Below are positions 1 through 6,178 of a stretch of DNA of 64,000 bases, one piece after another. Location: NCBI GenBank assembly GCA_036229005.1, contig JAZAMN010000003.1:64001-128000 (forward strand), written 5' to 3'. Position numbers and translations under genes: made by a program. Each line of letters opens with the position of its first letter. Positions within the stretch are counted from its first letter, which is position 1. Below the pieces are notes generated by a model that saw only the letters and a list, made by a program, of their open reading frames with translations, did not search any database and was not told where the DNA came from. This stretch comes from Myxococcota bacterium. Lineage in GTDB: Bacteria; Myxococcota_A; UBA796; CAJQPC01.

Positions 1-1884
1 ATAGCTGGCGAGCGCCAGGGCGGCCTCACAGCGCACCTCTCCCAGGCGCAGGCCGCTGACCTTTGCGTAGCGGAGGAGCTGGGTGCGGTCGTCGACCCGG
101 AGCGCGCCCAGGGCCCGCATCGCCGCGCTCAAGAAAGCCTTGTAGTTCAGGGTGGTGTCGAAGCCGTCGTCTGCGGGGAGCTGGGCGACCAGGGCATTCA
201 GGGCCGGCCCCGCGGCCTCCACCGAGAGCGCGCCGGCGAGCGTGGGCAGCACCTGGACCTGCCAGGTGTTCAGGGACTCCCTGGGGTCCAGCGGCTCGAT
301 GCCCGCGACGATGGCCGCGTGTCCGGCCGGGTGGAGCTCCACCGCGCTCAGGGCCAGGATGTCTCGCGCCTTGCGTCCGTCCAGGCCACGCTGTCCCTCG
401 GGCATGGACGAGCCGTGCAGCGCGATCCCGAGCAGCAGGAGCTGTGTGGCGGTGTTCAACGAGAGCGCCGAGCGCCGGACCATGTCCTCCTCCTCCCGGG
501 AGTACTGCTCACACTCCCCCTCAATGAGCAGGGAGAGGGACTGCCGCAGCGTTCGGTGTTCGGGGGCACACCACAGCGCCTGCAGGGCCACCTGGTTCAA
601 CTTGGGGTCCTCAAAGCAAGCGAGGACACGCTGGAGCCTCCCGGTCTCATCCAGCTCGGGCAGCTCGGCGACCAGCTTCTTCCGCTCCAGGCGCTCTCGA
701 AGCGCCCTGGCCTTGGCCTCGGCCTCTCGCTGCTCGGCCCGCGCGGGGTCCAGATCCAGGGCCCGGAAGCGCGCCAGGGAGGCCGGCCAGTCGTGGTGCT
801 TGCCCAGGCTCTGGCGGCCCGCCTGCAGCTCGCGGATCAGCTTGATGGCGTCCTGGACGATGCGGCCCGGGTGCTCGGCGGCGGCCTCCATGAAGGGCTC
901 CAGGTGGGGCTCGTCAAAGAGGTAGGCGCGCCAGATGCTGTAGAGCGCGGTCGGTGTCGCCTTGGTGATCATGTCCAGGCGACCCTGCAGAGCGTCGTCG
1001 GGGACCACCTCGTTGAGGTTCTCGTAGAACACGTCCCCGGCCTCTTCGATGCTCCAGTTGGAGGGGTGGCTGAGCAGGGTGAAGATCCAGCGCGCCCGGT
1101 AGCCAAAGTAGAGCGCCGCGGACTGCCCCGGCTCGGCCTTGAAGGGCTCGAAGTCCTCGTCGTAGTCGTCGATCGAGAAGTGCCAGCTCGGGGCCACCTT
1201 GCCGTGCAGGGCCTCGAACGCGGCGGCCTGGACCTCCTCGGAGAGCTGCTCTTCGCCGGCGGCCTTGCACAGGGCGTTCAGGAACACGCTGTGCTGCAGG
1301 TCCGGGCTGAACACGCCGGCAAAGAAGCCGCGGTTGTGGTCCCAGCGCAGGACCTGGGGCTGGGGGTCCCCCGGGTAGGTGTCCAGGTGGAAGCTGTCGC
1401 CGTCGCCCAGGTCACCCAGGGGCAGGGTGCCCGCGAACACCCCGGCCAGGCCGTTGCCCAGGTAGTTGAGCTGGTCGGCCAGCAGGAGCTGCTCAAAGAG
1501 GTTGATGCCTTCGGGCGGCAGGCGCACCTGGCGGGAGACCAGGCGGAGCTCATCGAAGGTGGAGTAGGGGTTGACCTGGCCCTGGACCGCGCGCTCGAAG
1601 TCGACAAAGCGCTGCGGCGCGGGGATGCCCAGCGTCGGCTCGATGTCGCGGCTGTCACCGGTCCACAGGCCGTGGCTGGCTGCCATGGCCTCGCGCTGCC
1701 ACTGGGGGCCTTCGTGGTGGGCGAAGTCCTCGGCCGAGGCGGTGGGGTAGGGGCCTTGGGGCGGGAGCTGTCCCTCCTCCTCCGGGAGCCCGTTCTGGGC
1801 ACAGACGAAGCGCCGCAGCCGGGAGAGAGGACCGTCCAGGAAGCCCTCGGGGCCGTCCTGGAAGAGGGGGTCGAGCTCAGACAT
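1..1884 (-). CDS. Large hypothetical protein, runs off the left edge; SMI1/KNR4 (SUKH)-like motif followed by a long helical/HEAT-like region
   Basis: Not in the ORF track (no stop inside the window). Manual translation from ATG at 1884 (GGAGG upstream): MSELDPLFQDGPEGFLDG..., open to position 1. Contains LPLGDLGDGDSFHLDTYPGDPQPQVLRWDH at about 1327-1432. Confidence 0.8.
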   Translation of the reverse strand, partial: MSELDPLFQDGPEGFLDGPLSRLRRFVCAQNGLPEEEGQLPPQGPYPTASAEDFAHHEGPQWQREAMAASHGLWTGDSRDIEPTLGIPAPQRFVDFERAVQGQVNPYSTFDELRLVSRQVRLPPEGINLFEQLLLADQLNYLGNGLAGVFAGTLPLGDLGDGDSFHLDTYPGDPQPQVLRWDHNRGFFAGVFSPDLQHSVFLNALCKAAGEEQLSEEVQAAAFEALHGKVAPSWHFSIDDYDEDFEPFKAEPGQSAALYFGYRARWIFTLLSHPSNWSIEEAGDVFYENLNEVVPDDALQGRLDMITKATPTALYSIWRAYLFDEPHLEPFMEAAAEHPGRIVQDAIKLIRELQAGRQSLGKHHDWPASLARFRALDLDPARAEQREAEAKARALRERLERKKLVAELPELDETGRLQRVLACFEDPKLNQVALQALWCAPEHRTLRQSLSLLIEGECEQYSREEEDMVRRSALSLNTATQLLLLGIALHGSSMPEGQRGLDGRKARDILALSAVELHPAGHAAIVAGIEPLDPRESLNTWQVQVLPTLAGALSVEAAGPALNALVAQLPADDGFDTTLNYKAFLSAAMRALGALRVDDRTQLLRYAKVSGLRLGEVRCEAALALASY

Positions 1885-1971: not shown

Positions 1972-3384
1972 TCAGGGGGTGGGCTGCTCGGCCTCGGGGA
2001 CCTGCTCCCCCTTGATCCCCAGGCGGCTGGCCTCCTCCCGGAGCTCCTCCTTGATCTTGCGGCGGTGGGCGTTCAGGTCCCGCACGGTGGCGATCTCCCC
2101 GCGCTTGTCGTAGTCGGCCCGCACCACCGCCATGCGCTCGTTCACCGCCGCCCGCGCGGCCTCGTTGTAGTCGCGCTGCTGCTCCGCCCACTCCATGAAG
2201 CTCAGTCGCTGCTCGCGCTTGGCCGCCAGGAAGGAGTCCAGCTTCTCGCCGGGGGTCATGGGCGCGATGGCCTCGACGCTCTCCTTCCAGCCGGTCATCT
2301 CGCCCACCGGGACCTCGGAGTCCACGATGGTGCCCTTGGCGGAGGCGACCTCCAGGACGCCCTGCCCCCAGCGCTGGTCGATGCGGAAGTCCAGGTTGCC
2401 CGAGAGCTTGAGGCGCATCTCGTAGACCTGGTCACCGTCGCGGCGGCGCAGCATGTAGCGGCCGGGGGGCAGGGCCAGCACGATCTGCTCGTCGGGGGAC
2501 TTGTGGAGCTCGGCCACGAGCTGCTTCCCGGGGTCGGTGAGCACCAGGATGTGGCCGCCAAAGCCCGGCTTGAGGGTCACCCGCGCGTCGTCGTGGGTCA
2601 GGCGGGTCAGCGGCAGCTCGCCCTGGCCCTTGAGGTGCGTCTCGTAGACCGGGTGCTGGGTGCCCGCCAGGGTCCCGTCGGTGCTGGTGACCGTGCGCTC
2701 GTAGGCGTAGCTGTAGGCCTCGTTCAGGGAGACCACGCCATCGCCGTTGTCGGCCGCGCCGCGCAGCCCGGTGACCAGGTGGTGGGTGAAGAAGCTGCCC
2801 GCCAGCCGGTCGGACTCCTGGGCCCGCTCGCTCGCGGAGGAGGCGGTGATCCACACCTCGCCGGTCGACGACAGCGAGGTCCCCAGGAAGGGGTCCACGA
2901 CCTGCGCGCCCTTGGAGCTGGTGATGGCGCCCGACTGGCAGGCGTCCAGCACGCCCAGGCGCACCTCGGCGTCGATGCGCGTGATGTCCTCGCGCAGGGT
3001 CTCGAAGCGGTAACGGCTCTCCCCAAGCCGCAGCCCAGCCGCGTCGGCGTGCCCCGAATAGTAGAAGAAGAACAGCTCCTCCTCCTCCTGCCCCGAGGCC
3101 GTCGCGAAGGCCTCCAGCCATTGGGACAGCTCGCCCACGGTGGGGGAGTCCAGGACCACCACGTCCTCCGGGTTGAAGCCGCCCAGGTCGATCAGGGTCT
3201 CGGCGACCCGGTGGGCGTCCTTCTCGGCGTACTGCAGGGTCTCCAGGTCCAGTCCACCGTCGTTGTGGCCCACAACCAGGGCGCGCCGCACGACCTCGGC
3301 CTGGGCGTCGGACGCGGCGAAGGCCGACACCGCCAGGGCGCCGACCAGGGTGGAGCGGGAGAGGGCTCGGAGCGCGCGGGACAT
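1972..3384 (-). CDS. Secreted caspase-family (peptidase C14) protein with C-terminal beta domain and coiled coil
   Basis: Signal peptide (…AASDAQA); RRALVVG start of domain; catalytic His in FYYSGHAD and Cys in LDACQSG; ESDRLAGSFFTHHL; VSLNEAY…QHP. Confidence 0.9.
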   Translation of the reverse strand: MSRALRALSRSTLVGALAVSAFAASDAQAEVVRRALVVGHNDGGLDLETLQYAEKDAHRVAETLIDLGGFNPEDVVVLDSPTVGELSQWLEAFATASGQEEEELFFFYYSGHADAAGLRLGESRYRFETLREDITRIDAEVRLGVLDACQSGAITSSKGAQVVDPFLGTSLSSTGEVWITASSASERAQESDRLAGSFFTHHLVTGLRGAADNGDGVVSLNEAYSYAYERTVTSTDGTLAGTQHPVYETHLKGQGELPLTRLTHDDARVTLKPGFGGHILVLTDPGKQLVAELHKSPDEQIVLALPPGRYMLRRRDGDQVYEMRLKLSGNLDFRIDQRWGQGVLEVASAKGTIVDSEVPVGEMTGWKESVEAIAPMTPGEKLDSFLAAKREQRLSFMEWAEQQRDYNEAARAAVNERMAVVRADYDKRGEIATVRDLNAHRRKIKEELREEASRLGIKGEQVPEAEQPTP

Positions 3385-3387
3385 CAG

Positions 3388-4110
3388 CTACTCCTTCTCA
3401 AAGTGCAGGGTGCGCAGGACCCCACCGTCCGGGACATCGTGCTTCAAGATTGCCTGACGGATCTGGGCCTCGCTGGGCTGCTCGCGGGTGAACAGGGCGT
3501 AGAAACGCTGCTCCCCCGGCGTTCCATCCATCTGCAGGGCAAAGGGGGCCTGCAGGATCTGCAGCTCGGAGTCGGCCTTGATGGTGCCGTAGAGCTCCAC
3601 GACCCCGTGCCCGTCCACTCCGCCAAAGCTCACGTAGGGCCGCTCCATCGTCGAGAACTTGAGCTGCAGCACGTCCCCGGCGTGGAGCACGTCGTCCGTG
3701 TCCAACAGCACCGGGCCCTCGCGGGTGTCCAGCCAGGCCTCCAGCAGGATGTGCTCGCCCTTGGAGCGGGTCTGCGCGTAGGGGTTGTCCGAGGCAGGCT
3801 CCTTCGGGGAGAGGAGCAGCGGGAAGGCCACCAGCACTGCTGCAGCCACCGCCATCAACACCCAGCGCCAGGCACTGTTGTCATTGGCTGGCATCGGCGA
3901 GGTGCGGCTGCCCGGCTCCCGCTCGGCGGCGCGGCGGATCGCCTCTGGGACGGGCTCAAGCACGAAGGCGTTGCGGTTGGCCTCCTGGGCGCCCAGGCGG
4001 CCCGCGCAGCGCTCACAGTCCTGGATGTGGGCCCGGGCCTGGGCCTCCGCGGCGGGGTCCAGCTCGCCGTAGCGGAGCTGGTTCAGCATCAGGGTGGAGA
4101 GGTGGGACAT
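3388..4110 (-). CDS. Zinc-binding (ZAS) transmembrane anti-sigma factor with extracytoplasmic DUF4384/ActD-like domain
   Basis: HIQDCERC (HxxxCxxC), one TM helix WRWVLMAVAAAVLVAFPLLL, then TRSKG and LHAGDVLQLKF; directly downstream of the ECF sigma gene. Confidence 0.85.
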   Translation of the reverse strand: MSHLSTLMLNQLRYGELDPAAEAQARAHIQDCERCAGRLGAQEANRNAFVLEPVPEAIRRAAEREPGSRTSPMPANDNSAWRWVLMAVAAAVLVAFPLLLSPKEPASDNPYAQTRSKGEHILLEAWLDTREGPVLLDTDDVLHAGDVLQLKFSTMERPYVSFGGVDGHGVVELYGTIKADSELQILQAPFALQMDGTPGEQRFYALFTREQPSEAQIRQAILKHDVPDGGVLRTLHFEKE

Positions 4111-4120
4111 GGTCTGGTCC

Positions 4121-4726
4121 TCAGAGGGCGTTGAGCTCTTGGAGCCACGGGGGAGGGTTCGTCTCGAGCTGGGCCTTGAACTTGGCCACGCGCTTGCGGA
4201 TGGCGGCGGCGCTCAGGCCCAGCAGATCGCCGATCTCGGCGTAGGTCATGCCGTCGACGTAGTGGTACAGCACGCAGTCCTGGGTGCCCTCGTCCGCCTC
4301 GTCCAGCAGACGGGCCACGAGATCGCGCAGGTCCGCGCCGGTGAGAAAGGTGTCTTCGACCGGGACCACGGCCTCCTCTTCCTGGAGGTCCTCGCGGCGC
4401 CGGCCGCGGGAGCGCAGGCGGTTCAGGCAGGTCGTCGTGGTGACCTTGAACAGCCAGGTGCTGGGCCGGGACTCACCCCGGAAGCTGTCGCGGTAGCGGT
4501 GGGCCTTCAAGAAGACCTCCTGGCAGACATCCTGGGCGTCGGCCTCGTTGCGCAGCAGGCTGCGGCAGCGGCCCAGGACCATGTCGCCATAGGCGCGGTA
4601 GAGAGCCTCGACATCGAGTTCCACGGAGGTGCCCGCCTTGCTTTGAGCGTTGCTCTGGCGCTGGGCCCTAACCCGGGGAGAGGCCACGGCGGCCTCCCCC
4701 TGGGCGGAGGGATGTCCTGGGGACAT
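4121..4726 (-). CDS. ECF RNA polymerase sigma factor (start uncertain, about 4626-4756)
   Basis: Region 2: LYRAYG…DAQDVCQEVF…STWLFKVTTTTCLNRLR; region 4: GMTYAEIGDLLGLSAAAIRKRV. Confidence 0.93.
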   Translation of the reverse strand: MSPGHPSAQGEAAVASPRVRAQRQSNAQSKAGTSVELDVEALYRAYGDMVLGRCRSLLRNEADAQDVCQEVFLKAHRYRDSFRGESRPSTWLFKVTTTTCLNRLRSRGRRREDLQEEEAVVPVEDTFLTGADLRDLVARLLDEADEGTQDCVLYHYVDGMTYAEIGDLLGLSAAAIRKRVAKFKAQLETNPPPWLQELNAL

Positions 4727-4746
4727 CGGGATGGCGGCGCTGCGGC

Positions 4747-5235
4747 TCACTCGCACTCGCCGGAGTCGTCGCTGCCCCAGTCCGTGCCGCTGTGGCCGGA
4801 CCCGACGGGGTAGATGGTGAAGGCACCCGGCAGCAGCTCGGCGTCACCGTCGGCGAACTCCAGGATGGCGTCGACCTCACCGAGCTCGGCGTCCTCGTCC
4901 ACCGACAGGATCGTGGTGATCTGGCCGTCCTCGACGACCTGGGCCATCACCTCGACGTCGCCGTAGAACACCATCGTGGCCTCGCTCAGGTCGAGCTCGC
5001 CGCTCTCCAGGCTGAGGATCCCGGCAAAGGTCTCGCCCTGCTCTGCGTGGCCGGGAACGAACTTGAGGACCGCAGGCTCAGCCTCCTCGCCGTCCTCGTC
5101 CACCGCGGTGTCGTCGTCCCACTCGTCCAGCTCGCAGCCCCACTCGTCGTCCGAGCAATCGCCGTCGTAGTAGATGCAGCCAGAGGTGATGGACAGGAAT
5201 CCCAGCAGGGGGAGGGCGCTCAGGTACTTGCTCAT
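4747..5235 (-). CDS. Acidic lipoprotein, hypothetical
   Basis: Signal MSKYLSALPLLGFLSITSGC with lipobox; GAGGAG RBS; very D/E-rich; first gene of the ECF cluster. Confidence 0.8.
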   Translation of the reverse strand: MSKYLSALPLLGFLSITSGCIYYDGDCSDDEWGCELDEWDDDTAVDEDGEEAEPAVLKFVPGHAEQGETFAGILSLESGELDLSEATMVFYGDVEVMAQVVEDGQITTILSVDEDAELGEVDAILEFADGDAELLPGAFTIYPVGSGHSGTDWGSDDSGECE

Positions 5236-5287: not shown

Positions 5288-5316
5288 GGACACCGCCTCT
5301 GGCTCTGGGCGTTACC
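5288..5316 (-). promoter_or_regulatory. Possible ECF-type promoter for the lipoprotein-ECF operon
   Basis: Minus strand reads GGTAAC-N17-GTGTCC about 50 nt upstream of the 5235 ATG; resembles AAC/GTC ECF promoter elements. Confidence 0.3.
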
Positions 5317-5362: not shown

Positions 5363-6178
5363 ATGCCTGAAAAAGCTTATAAGAACCTGGATTTTCTCAA
5401 CTCGCCCGCCGCTCGACTCATCCGGATCCAGTGTGAGTACAGCGAGCCGCAGGCCCGCTTCCGCCGCATGGGCGTCGAAGACACCATCGTGATGTACGGC
5501 TCGGCACGCACGCTGCCGGGCAACGTGGCTCAGCTTCGCCTGCAACACGCCAAGGAGGCCCTGGCCAAGGCCAAGGGCAAGGAGGAGAAGGCCAAGCTCG
5601 AGGCCGAGCTCAAGGTGGCCGAGGGCAAGCTCGCCAACTCCCGCTACTACGACGAGACCCGCGAGCTGGCCCGCCGCCTGACCCGCTGGGGCATGACCCG
5701 CCCCGGTGGCCGCGAGTACCTGATCTGCACGGGCGGTGGCCCCGGCATCATGGAGGCCGGAAACCGCGGCGCCGCCGATGTCGAGGGGGGCCGCAGCGTC
5801 GGCCTGGGCATCAGCCTGCCCTTCGAGGAGCGCCTGAACCAGTACGTCTCCAAGGACCTGGGCTTCGTGTTCCACTACTTCTTCATGCGGAAGTACTGGT
5901 TCATGTACCTGGCCAAGGCCATGGTGGTGCTGCCCGGCGGCTTCGGCACGCTGGACGAGCTCTTCGAGCTGCTGACCCTGCGCCAGACCGGAAAGGTCCG
6001 CAAGCAGCTCCCGATCGTGCTCTTCGGCAAGGCCTACTGGGAGAAGGTGCTCAACCTGCAGGCCATGGTGGACTACGGCACCATCGCGCCGGATGACCTG
6101 GACATGTTCTTCACCACGGACTCCGTGGACGAAGCCTACGAGTTCCTGACCGTCCAGCTCCGCAAGGTCTGGGGTTAG
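5363..6178 (+). CDS. LOG family (TIGR00730-type) nucleotide monophosphate phosphoribohydrolase-like protein
   Basis: YGSART, TGGGPGIMEAGNRGA, FHYFFMRK, PGGFGTLDELFE motifs; likely start MPEKAYKN. Confidence 0.92.
   Translation: MPEKAYKNLDFLNSPAARLIRIQCEYSEPQARFRRMGVEDTIVMYGSARTLPGNVAQLRLQHAKEALAKAKGKEEKAKLEAELKVAEGKLANSRYYDETRELARRLTRWGMTRPGGREYLICTGGGPGIMEAGNRGAADVEGGRSVGLGISLPFEERLNQYVSKDLGFVFHYFFMRKYWFMYLAKAMVVLPGGFGTLDELFELLTLRQTGKVRKQLPIVLFGKAYWEKVLNLQAMVDYGTIAPDDLDMFFTTDSVDEAYEFLTVQLRKVWG

Follow-up and report, generated by a model that had tools for sequence, protein, structure and literature searches.

A myxobacterial operon of sigma factor, anti-sigma factor and exported caspase with shared basic-glycine motifs at candidate cleavage sites

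A 64,000-nucleotide stretch of a Myxococcota genome (assembly GCA_036229005.1, contig JAZAMN010000003.1, positions 64,001 to 128,000 of the forward strand; hereafter the window) holds four minus-strand genes that encode, in operon order, a lipoprotein, a sigma factor with extracytoplasmic function (ECF), an anti-sigma factor of the ZAS type and an exported caspase-fold protease of family C14. The last three genes are referred to here as the triad. Since a basic residue followed by a small one recurs in three flexible linkers of the last two proteins, twice in the caspase and once in the anti-sigma factor, and since this pattern goes with whether a caspase is encoded next door and with the type of that caspase, the simplest account is that the caspase cuts these linkers. 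We propose, at a probability of about 0.6, that the caspase matures by cleavage between Lys or Arg and Gly and acts as the site-1 protease of the anti-sigma factor. The triad is a real, widespread and apparently uncharacterised signalling module and a variant of regulated anti-sigma proteolysis.

The operon and its products

The operon is as tight as the preliminary description of this DNA had proposed. The four open reading frames (ORFs) are separated by 20 nt (with the ATG taken as the start of the sigma gene), 10 nt and 3 nt. Sigma70_r2/r4 and Peptidase_C14 score over their Pfam cut-offs, and zf-HC2 and DUF4384 under theirs. RNA-type data from three runs of two studies place six short, near-identical contigs on the stretch, one of which spans the junction of the anti-sigma and caspase genes; such contigs say nothing on transcription, strand or level.

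The second protein of the triad has an N-terminal His/Cys motif, one transmembrane (TM) helix and a gene directly behind that of an ECF sigma factor, as expected of a ZAS anti-sigma factor. H3 and H28-x3-C32-x2-C35 follow the pattern H-x(23-26)-HxxxCxxC, which we take to be the N-terminal motif of this class; the zf-HC2 match (5e-4) reaches 20.5 bits against a cut-off of 22.2, and none of 149 long-clade relatives retains CxxC. The protein probably binds and inhibits the adjacent sigma factor, to judge from the order of the genes and the type of domain. Its TM helix, at about residues 83-101 by hydropathy, is followed by a flexible linker and a periplasmic immunoglobulin (Ig)-like domain at about 123-240. 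DUF4384 (PF14326) matches at 0.13 and 12.8 bits against a cut-off of 27, and relatives score 21-60 bits. The AlphaFold2 (AF2) model, with a predicted local distance difference test (pLDDT) score of 87, gives the ectodomain as a beta-sandwich whose best fold match is 9ard_B (Z 10.1, root-mean-square deviation 2.6, 102 residues aligned); it has no close fold relative, the matches being of a general Ig-like kind, and a PDB sequence search returned nothing significant for the anti-sigma profile or for the single caspase. Relatives are named 'ActD-like protein' at NCBI. One anti-sigma-like protein of 758 aa (P0005) has four tandem Ig/DUF4384 domains and lacks K-G behind its TM helix. Fused anti-sigma forms of 306-2000 aa were absent at E<=1e-10 among 8000 candidates, which is weak evidence. 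A second well-conserved lysine, K239, lies at the C-terminus of the Ig domain and is present in 83 of 94 homologs.

The caspase consists of a signal peptide (residues 1-29, AQA↓E), a caspase domain (about 33-262), an Ig-like domain (about 265-335), a linker and a helical tail, and its homologs also have signal-peptide-like N-termini as judged by eye. PF00656 matches at 53 bits against a cut-off of 21.4, which places the protein in Peptidase C14, and the AF2 model (pLDDT 90) has the caspase and Ig domains of MALT1 as its top fold match (E 1e-9), with caspases also among the matches. The intact His/Cys dyad that had been described is indeed present as His112 and Cys149, the latter being the sole cysteine of the protein, and it is invariant: H112, C149, D56, D147, E186 and E190 each occur in 98 of 98 homologs. 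D56 and D147, which we take to be residues of the S1 pocket, align with the aspartates of the metacaspase motifs N-D-A/V and D-S-C-H. These metacaspase aspartates have been tied to the Arg/Lys specificity of orthocaspases and metacaspases (PMC8283722). The two invariant aspartates would thus fit an S1 pocket for basic residues, an acidic pocket being the mark of C14 proteases with a basic P1 residue. Residues 212-222 form a conserved EF-hand-like loop, D-x-x-D-G-x-V-S/T-L-x-E, in which D212 and E222 are invariant and which may be a Ca2+ site; two relatives give weak EF-hand matches.

Behind the Ig-like domain lies a tail in which this genus stands apart. The coiled coil before which a K-G site had been reported is peculiar to the genus, K350 itself standing ahead of the tail as described. 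Among 180 locus caspases and 120 database caspases, the helical tail matches the same-genus ortholog only, and it has no usable match in the Atlas. The tails of most relatives measure 150-480 residues and end in a segment with alternating hydrophobics like the last strand of a beta-barrel (by eye). Only one scanned protein passes a Pfam cut-off for an outer-membrane protein (OMP) barrel, and the last residue is F, W or Y in 43 of 120, so that the outer-membrane anchor of the relatives is a putative one. A congener from the same genus carries a second, barrel-tailed caspase directly downstream, and its barrel-like tail has no match in the window's genome, which is 94% complete. Given the genus-only helical tail and the missing match to a barrel tail, the window's system is a derived form, probably with a soluble periplasmic caspase.

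The basic-glycine sites and their link to the caspase

All three K-G sites lie at the codons given in the preliminary description. Taken by itself, the window makes a weak case for the motif: KG dipeptides number four in the caspase, where composition predicts 1.3, and one in the anti-sigma factor, where it predicts 0.4. It is conservation among homologs that lifts the motif far above chance. In the caspases of the window's clade, duplicates removed, 117 sequences could be compared at the ninth residue behind the catalytic cysteine (Cys+9; K158 here): 116 have K and one has R, and the next residue is G in all 117. An independent database set of 120 caspases has KG at this position in 118 of 119 readable sequences. 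The Cys+9 motif is absent from the three non-triad caspases of the same genome and from three non-triad ones of another genome. The last caspase site (site 3, K350), about 200 residues behind the cysteine and just past the Ig-like domain, is less uniform, with K in 67 of the 117 and R in 47; the glycine is present in 112. K117 of the anti-sigma factor is the most conserved column of that protein (K 91, R 2 and one gap in 94 homologs); G follows in 82 of 94, and A, S or T in most others. KG is present in 145 of 149 anti-sigma factors of a database set, though the profile that retrieved this set includes the motif.

In the AF2 models, K158 borders a segment with pLDDT under 50, K350 lies in a low-confidence linker, and K117 lies in a segment with pLDDT below 50, outside the folded domain and ahead of the first Ig strand. 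Since K117 belongs to a disordered stretch before the first strand, its conservation is not explained by the fold. The element that is shared is a broader one than the x-x-K-G motif first described. An alignment of homologs had been suggested for (R/S)xKG at all three positions: the basic residue and the glycine are kept, and the serine ahead of the lysine is not. A strict x-S-K-G motif was rejected on this ground, and so was a specificity for lysine alone, arginine being used at site 3 and by a sister clade; K-G does occur three times in the window proteins, and [K/R]-G is what is conserved. An arginine two residues ahead of the lysine is common (93 of 117 caspases, 62 of 94 anti-sigma factors) and absent at both caspase sites here.

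The genes keep company across the phylum. In a sample of 301 genomes, caspase matches occur in 116 (E<=1e-20) and matches to the anti-sigma profile in 131 (E<=1e-4), largely the same genomes; the anti-sigma profile retrieves 6,758 clusters at 50% identity (E<=1e-10), not all of them necessarily in triads. Among loci with at least 2.5 kb upstream, sigma and anti-sigma genes lie within about 3.5 kb of 82 of 93 caspases of the window's clade (the KG clade), where some misses are rearranged loci in which the anti-sigma factor scores under the limit, and of 33 of 41 of the sister (RG) clade. An automated search for related loci returned 5. Rearranged loci (L049, L056, L058, L064, L069, L076, L079) have the caspase first and sigma and anti-sigma genes about 1-2 kb downstream, or a divergent order, and keep the motifs where readable. 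The window's own genome holds two further triads and three other C14 genes. One of these triads (G000:C46:20048-23001, L096) carries K-G at each of the three sites, and its caspase ends in a barrel-like tail; the other (G000:C74, L150) is of a distant type, with R-G in the anti-sigma factor and R-S at Cys+10.

The anti-sigma site is missing where the caspase is missing. With an Ig-core profile built without the motif, 183 distinct domains were classed by their neighbours, and the 33 residues ahead of the Ig core were compared. Where a caspase is linked, 130 of 154 domains have [KR]G in this segment, against 31% in shuffles; where none lies within about 3 kb, 0 of 16 related Ig domains have it, against 13% in shuffles. 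On a FastTree tree, 9 changes are required for the caspase-less rows, 2 of them forced by starred branches; one such row without the motif (L146) is nested inside a starred KG clade. At two loci the genes for a sigma factor and an anti-sigma factor without KG precede one for an OMP barrel protein that has no caspase domain (L148:3460-5964) or for a TPR-CHAT protease (L190:2781-6898); these are natural variants in which the caspase was lost or replaced.

The site also follows the type of the caspase. RG-clade caspases, found in 47 of the 301 genomes, have R at Cys+9 in 56 of 60 and at site 3 in 53 of 60 (K in 7). Beside 98 KG-clade caspases the anti-sigma residue is K in 93, R in 3 and unreadable in 2; beside 56 RG-clade caspases it is R in 49, K in 6 and unreadable in 1 (8 rows of this pairing table were corrected by eye). 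The RG clade lies on one branch both in a caspase tree with the motif columns removed and in the Ig-core tree.

Several observations weigh against the idea that the caspase cuts these sites, or against a strict form of it. The K/R switch between the clades is approximately one evolutionary event, and the co-switch, which amounts to one or two independent events, is not statistically significant: there are 2 independent pairs for the first caspase site against the anti-sigma factor, and 9 with p 0.25 for site 3. Statistical co-evolution of K and R on the caspase tree was accordingly rejected, there being too few independent changes. Site 3 varies independently of the other two, 41 of 98 KG triads being K/R/K, and it is R in 102 of 120 long homologs; six RG-clade anti-sigma factors have K, and in L186 the site lacks a basic residue. 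As to the control, 2 of the 16 caspase-less domains have a sigma neighbour and the other 14 may not be anti-sigma factors, about 2 of 16 would carry [KR]G by chance, and the set was picked from 15 genomes. Five short-contig rows were set aside, of which 3 have RG; L183 has KG and a sigma factor and no caspase in 6.3 kb, and fell under the control's E-value limit; L174 has RG at a contig end. Five triads with more distant caspases keep the anti-sigma motif, and [KR]G is absent at Cys+9 in the four read by script. The caspase furthermore has a conserved R208-G209 inside its fold. The event count and the independence of site 3 indicate that the proteins have in common a basic-small site for which each clade has its preference, and that this falls short of a strict code.

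A cleavage model and rival explanations

How such sites could serve signalling may be pictured as follows. The sigma factor would be held by the cytoplasmic ZAS domain of the single-pass anti-sigma factor, and the exported caspase would be a Lys/Arg-specific zymogen in which an envelope signal triggers a cut between K158 and glycine, in the loop behind the catalytic cysteine. A cut between K350 and glycine would free the protease from its C-terminal tail, a barrel-like outer-membrane anchor in most relatives and a helical tail here. The caspase may then cut the anti-sigma factor between K117 and glycine, which would remove the bulky Ig domain, and an RseP-type protease would cut the remaining stub and release the sigma factor. 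RseP acts on a myxobacterial anti-sigma factor stripped of its periplasmic domain (PMC11506125), and the window's genome has an M50/RseP-type gene (E 4e-61). The free sigma factor would transcribe its own operon, lipoprotein gene included, from a promoter of the form GGTAAC-N16-GGTGTC. What the sequences show is the gene linkage, the dyad and acidic residues, the three linker sites and the absence of the anti-sigma site without a caspase, the promoter motif and the M50 gene; from these we infer every cleavage step, the order of the steps, the signal, the role of RseP and autoregulation. Co-folding of caspase 30-355 with anti-sigma 103-240, both given as alignments, scored 0.01 against a mark of 0.32 and speaks neither way.

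It is possible that the anti-sigma linker is bait, a pseudo-substrate that restrains the caspase or senses its activity, while the caspase mainly cuts other envelope proteins and the sigma factor is freed otherwise. Such a role would account no less well for the conservation of the motif, for its loss where the caspase is missing and for the K/R match, and it has a precedent in PCi, which both inhibits and is cut by PCaspase at a sigma-PCi-PCaspase locus of Haliangium (bioRxiv 2023.06.23.546230). In the window's genome one strict promoter match also lies ahead of a gene for a secreted protein in which S-A-K-G stands close to the N-terminus, which may be chance. However, canonical protease inhibitors usually offer a rigid loop, whereas the linker with the site in question is unstructured and so close to the outer face of the membrane that a site-1 cut there would release the entire ectodomain, and the same motif stands at zymogen-like positions of the caspase; we regard bait as unlikely, if worth keeping in view. 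Perhaps instead all three sites are cut constitutively while the proteins are exported. The pieces would then remain associated, and the signal would consist in their physical separation, for example via the barrel or the tail. Self-cleaved anti-sigma factors whose fragments stay bound until a signal arrives have been described (PMC11506125), MaOC1 autoprocesses without Ca2+ (PMC8283722), and no dedicated activator gene is conserved beside the triad. The anti-sigma linker, however, is predicted to be unstructured on the membrane side of the site, and we deem constitutive maturation unlikely as well.

The sites could also be cut by another trypsin-like or caspase-like enzyme of the host, of prey or from a paralogous locus, which would thereby activate the caspase and remove the anti-sigma factor. 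PCaspase does require cleavage by SAVED-CHAT (bioRxiv 2023.06.23.546230), and a genome with three triads and three other C14 genes offers candidates. That the motif tracks the presence and the clade of the adjacent caspase, whose pocket suits basic residues, makes a third party very unlikely. Still more improbable is that no proteolysis is involved and that K/R-G is a structural or docking turn, conserved independently at its three occurrences. R208-G209 is after all a conserved basic-glycine pair within a fold, and low pLDDT values of single-chain models are compatible with ordering in a complex; yet the linkers that hold the three sites are of low confidence and belong to two unrelated folds, the anti-sigma site disappears where no caspase is adjacent, and its change from K to R follows the caspase clade. 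Cleavage by the operon's own caspase is the reading that we prefer.

Output, surroundings and relation to known systems

The candidate ECF promoter ahead of the lipoprotein gene (Table 1) is conserved: of 12 close loci, 10 have an exact GGTA(A/G)C-N16-GGTGTC ahead of their lipoprotein homolog, one more has it with one mismatch and another has the -10 element only. A looser form stands upstream of 36 of 87 KG-clade sigma genes, compared with 3 of 87 on the opposite strand, and of 0 of 36 RG-clade sigma genes. Autoregulation of the operon by its sigma factor is suggested by this pattern. Since strict matches number 16 genome-wide, compared with 3-13 for wrong spacings, regulon targets are indistinguishable from chance. 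Two strict matches about 50 nt before secreted-type ORFs, at G000:C54:41514 (-) and G000:C16:75807 (+), may mark members of the regulon, although such matches do not exceed chance genome-wide; in the C54 product, S-A-K-G follows directly on the signal peptide. The lipoprotein has no Pfam or NCBIfam match, and its look-alikes in the Atlas are TIG-type (scores 0.82-0.84), a lead only, so that it is probably an Ig/TIG-like domain protein. Its homologs among genes neighbouring triads number 12, of which 9 lie upstream and 3 downstream. That it accompanies the triad in the close clade and keeps a promoter copy of its own where it stands apart (L102) fits a regulated output, and the lipoprotein gene is likely one.

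No single partner gene is conserved beside the triads. Most of the downstream families that recur have not been characterised, and many resemble lipoproteins (a loose lipobox pattern matches 42 of 124). A role in a defence island was rejected: no cas, CD-NTase or SAVED families occur among 91 immediate-neighbour proteins, and PADLOC gives a weak generic caspase match (1e-6) and nothing else. Downstream of the caspase gene, after 87 nt, an 895-aa ORF runs 803 nt past the start of the window; the 628 aa inside the window have no Pfam match, and the ORF sits where the congener has its second, barrel-tailed caspase and other genes. A LOG/lysine-decarboxylase-family gene (PF03641), divergent from the operon, adjoins it in several related loci as well, probably through synteny.

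Table 1. The operon, its candidate sites and its immediate surroundings, in window positions
Feature	Position	Strand	Evidence or remark
Lipoprotein, 162 aa	4747-5235	-	lipobox TSG↓C20; acidic
ECF sigma factor, 201 aa from ATG 4726 (or 211 aa from GTG 4756)	4121-4726	-	PF04542 7e-18, PF08281 1e-8, TIGR02937 3e-25
Anti-sigma factor: ZAS, TM, linker, Ig-like ectodomain	3388-4110	-	zf-HC2 and DUF4384 under cut-off
Exported caspase-fold protease (C14)	1972-3384	-	PF00656 5e-14
Caspase K158-G159 (Cys+9/+10), candidate activating cut in loop behind catalytic Cys	2908-2913	-	K codon 2911-2913
Caspase K350-G351 (site 3), candidate cut between protease+Ig part and C-terminal tail	2332-2337	-	K codon 2335-2337
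Anti-sigma K117-G118, candidate site-1 cleavage site	3757-3762	-	K codon 3760-3762
Catalytic dyad His112 (3049-3051) and Cys149 (2938-2940), with Asp147	2938-3051	-	Asp56 at 3217-3219 is the other candidate S1 residue
Helical/coiled-coil tail, 119 aa, replacing the family's usual barrel-like tail	1975-2331	-	matches same-genus ortholog only
Candidate ECF promoter, -35 GGTAAC, N16 spacer, -10 GGTGTC	5289-5316	-	81 nt upstream of lipoprotein ATG
Anti-sigma K239	3394-3396	-	
Caspase EF-hand-like loop, residues 212-222	about 2719-2751	-	
895-aa ORF, part within the window	1-1884	-	
LOG/lysine-decarboxylase-family gene	5363-6178	+	PF03641

Among known systems, DdvS/DdvA of M. xanthus comes close, as it too pairs a myxobacterial ECF sigma factor with a single-pass ZAS anti-sigma factor, and a caspase-clan protease is proposed for a site-1 cut in the linker outside the membrane, with RseP acting second, as shown for truncated DdvA (PMC11506125). 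In DdvA, however, a TPR-CHAT domain is part of the anti-sigma factor itself and its active site is incomplete, self-cleavage being proposed only (PMC11506125). The triad protease, by contrast, is exported as a C14 protein of its own in which the dyad is intact, the triad has no defence island attached to it, and the small ectodomain, an Ig fold of 118 aa, matches neither CHAT nor TPR. In type III-E systems (Csx29/Csx30/RpoE) a caspase-clan protease cuts an anti-sigma linker between the sigma-binding and C-terminal domains, one group of Csx30 C-terminal domains being DUF4384; that system differs in being cytoplasmic and of the CHAT family, triggered by CRISPR RNA, with a cut after Met427 and no TM helix or export (bioRxiv 2022.08.17.504292). 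The type III-B PCaspase/PCi/PCc-sigma system of Haliangium ochraceum likewise encodes a C14 caspase with a sigma factor, and this caspase is activated by cleavage and cuts sigma-associated proteins. It differs in its activation by SAVED-CHAT and cyclic triadenylate (cA3), its broad specificity, its role in abortive infection and its cutting of the sigma factor itself, and no membrane anti-sigma factor is described in the accessible part of the account (bioRxiv 2023.06.23.546230). The triad caspase is set apart from such proteases linked to CRISPR or to cyclic-oligonucleotide-based antiphage signalling (CBASS) by its signal peptide and by the absence of such genes among immediate neighbours. 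With DegS/RseA/RseP the triad would share a periplasmic site-1 cut of a single-pass anti-sigma factor followed by an M50 protease (PMC7826278), the latter step being a putative one in the triad; here, in contrast, the site-1 enzyme would be a caspase-fold Cys protease from the same operon that bears the substrate motif itself and usually has a barrel-like tail.

Relatives of the triad may already be present in published data. To judge from annotation and the order of the genes, M. xanthus seems to have two such loci, with altered expression in C-signal mutants: MXAN_4949-4952 and MXAN_7214-7217, each a sigma factor, a hypothetical protein, a caspase and a secreted-type protein, are all up in a csgA mutant (PMC11980068). 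MXAN0233-0235, with a sigma factor, a degenerate actD and a lipoprotein, are alike by names and gene order as well (PMC2875238); in the act operon, the gene at the ActC position encodes an acetyltransferase, not a sigma factor. By its description, ECF216 of the Myxococcales is similar, with a zinc-finger, single-TM anti-sigma factor at +1 and a context of carboxypeptidase-regulatory-like and EF-hand domains, the latter paralleling the EF-hand-like loop of triad caspases, and ECF25 anti-sigma factors have a zinc domain and/or DUF4384 (PMC7826278). The accessible parts of these group descriptions mention no caspase, and ECF216 has no recorded conserved promoter there (PMC7826278). In the open literature, with subscription papers outside the scope, no account of the triad or of its motif was found.

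The family points to a candidate substrate and bond, K117-G118 of the anti-sigma factor, to two candidate self-cleavage sites and to a promoter for a reporter. To our knowledge, no substrate has been identified for most bacterial caspases, and those that have been characterised serve phage defence or cell death. We see an even chance that these operons make up a large undescribed trans-envelope class, in which the operon-encoded caspase, usually tethered by an outer-membrane barrel, is a dedicated anti-sigma site-1 protease, one [K/R]↓G code serves activation, anchor release and substrate, and Lys and Arg clades may insulate paralogs within a single cell. If this is true, thousands of bacterial caspases, with copies in M. 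xanthus, would gain a native substrate and a signalling role other than in death. Caspase-fold enzymes would join DegS-type enzymes as site-1 proteases, and a route from the outer membrane to a sigma factor without a TonB receptor would be added to those known. The genus of the window would then represent a derived, barrel-free form with a different sensory tail.

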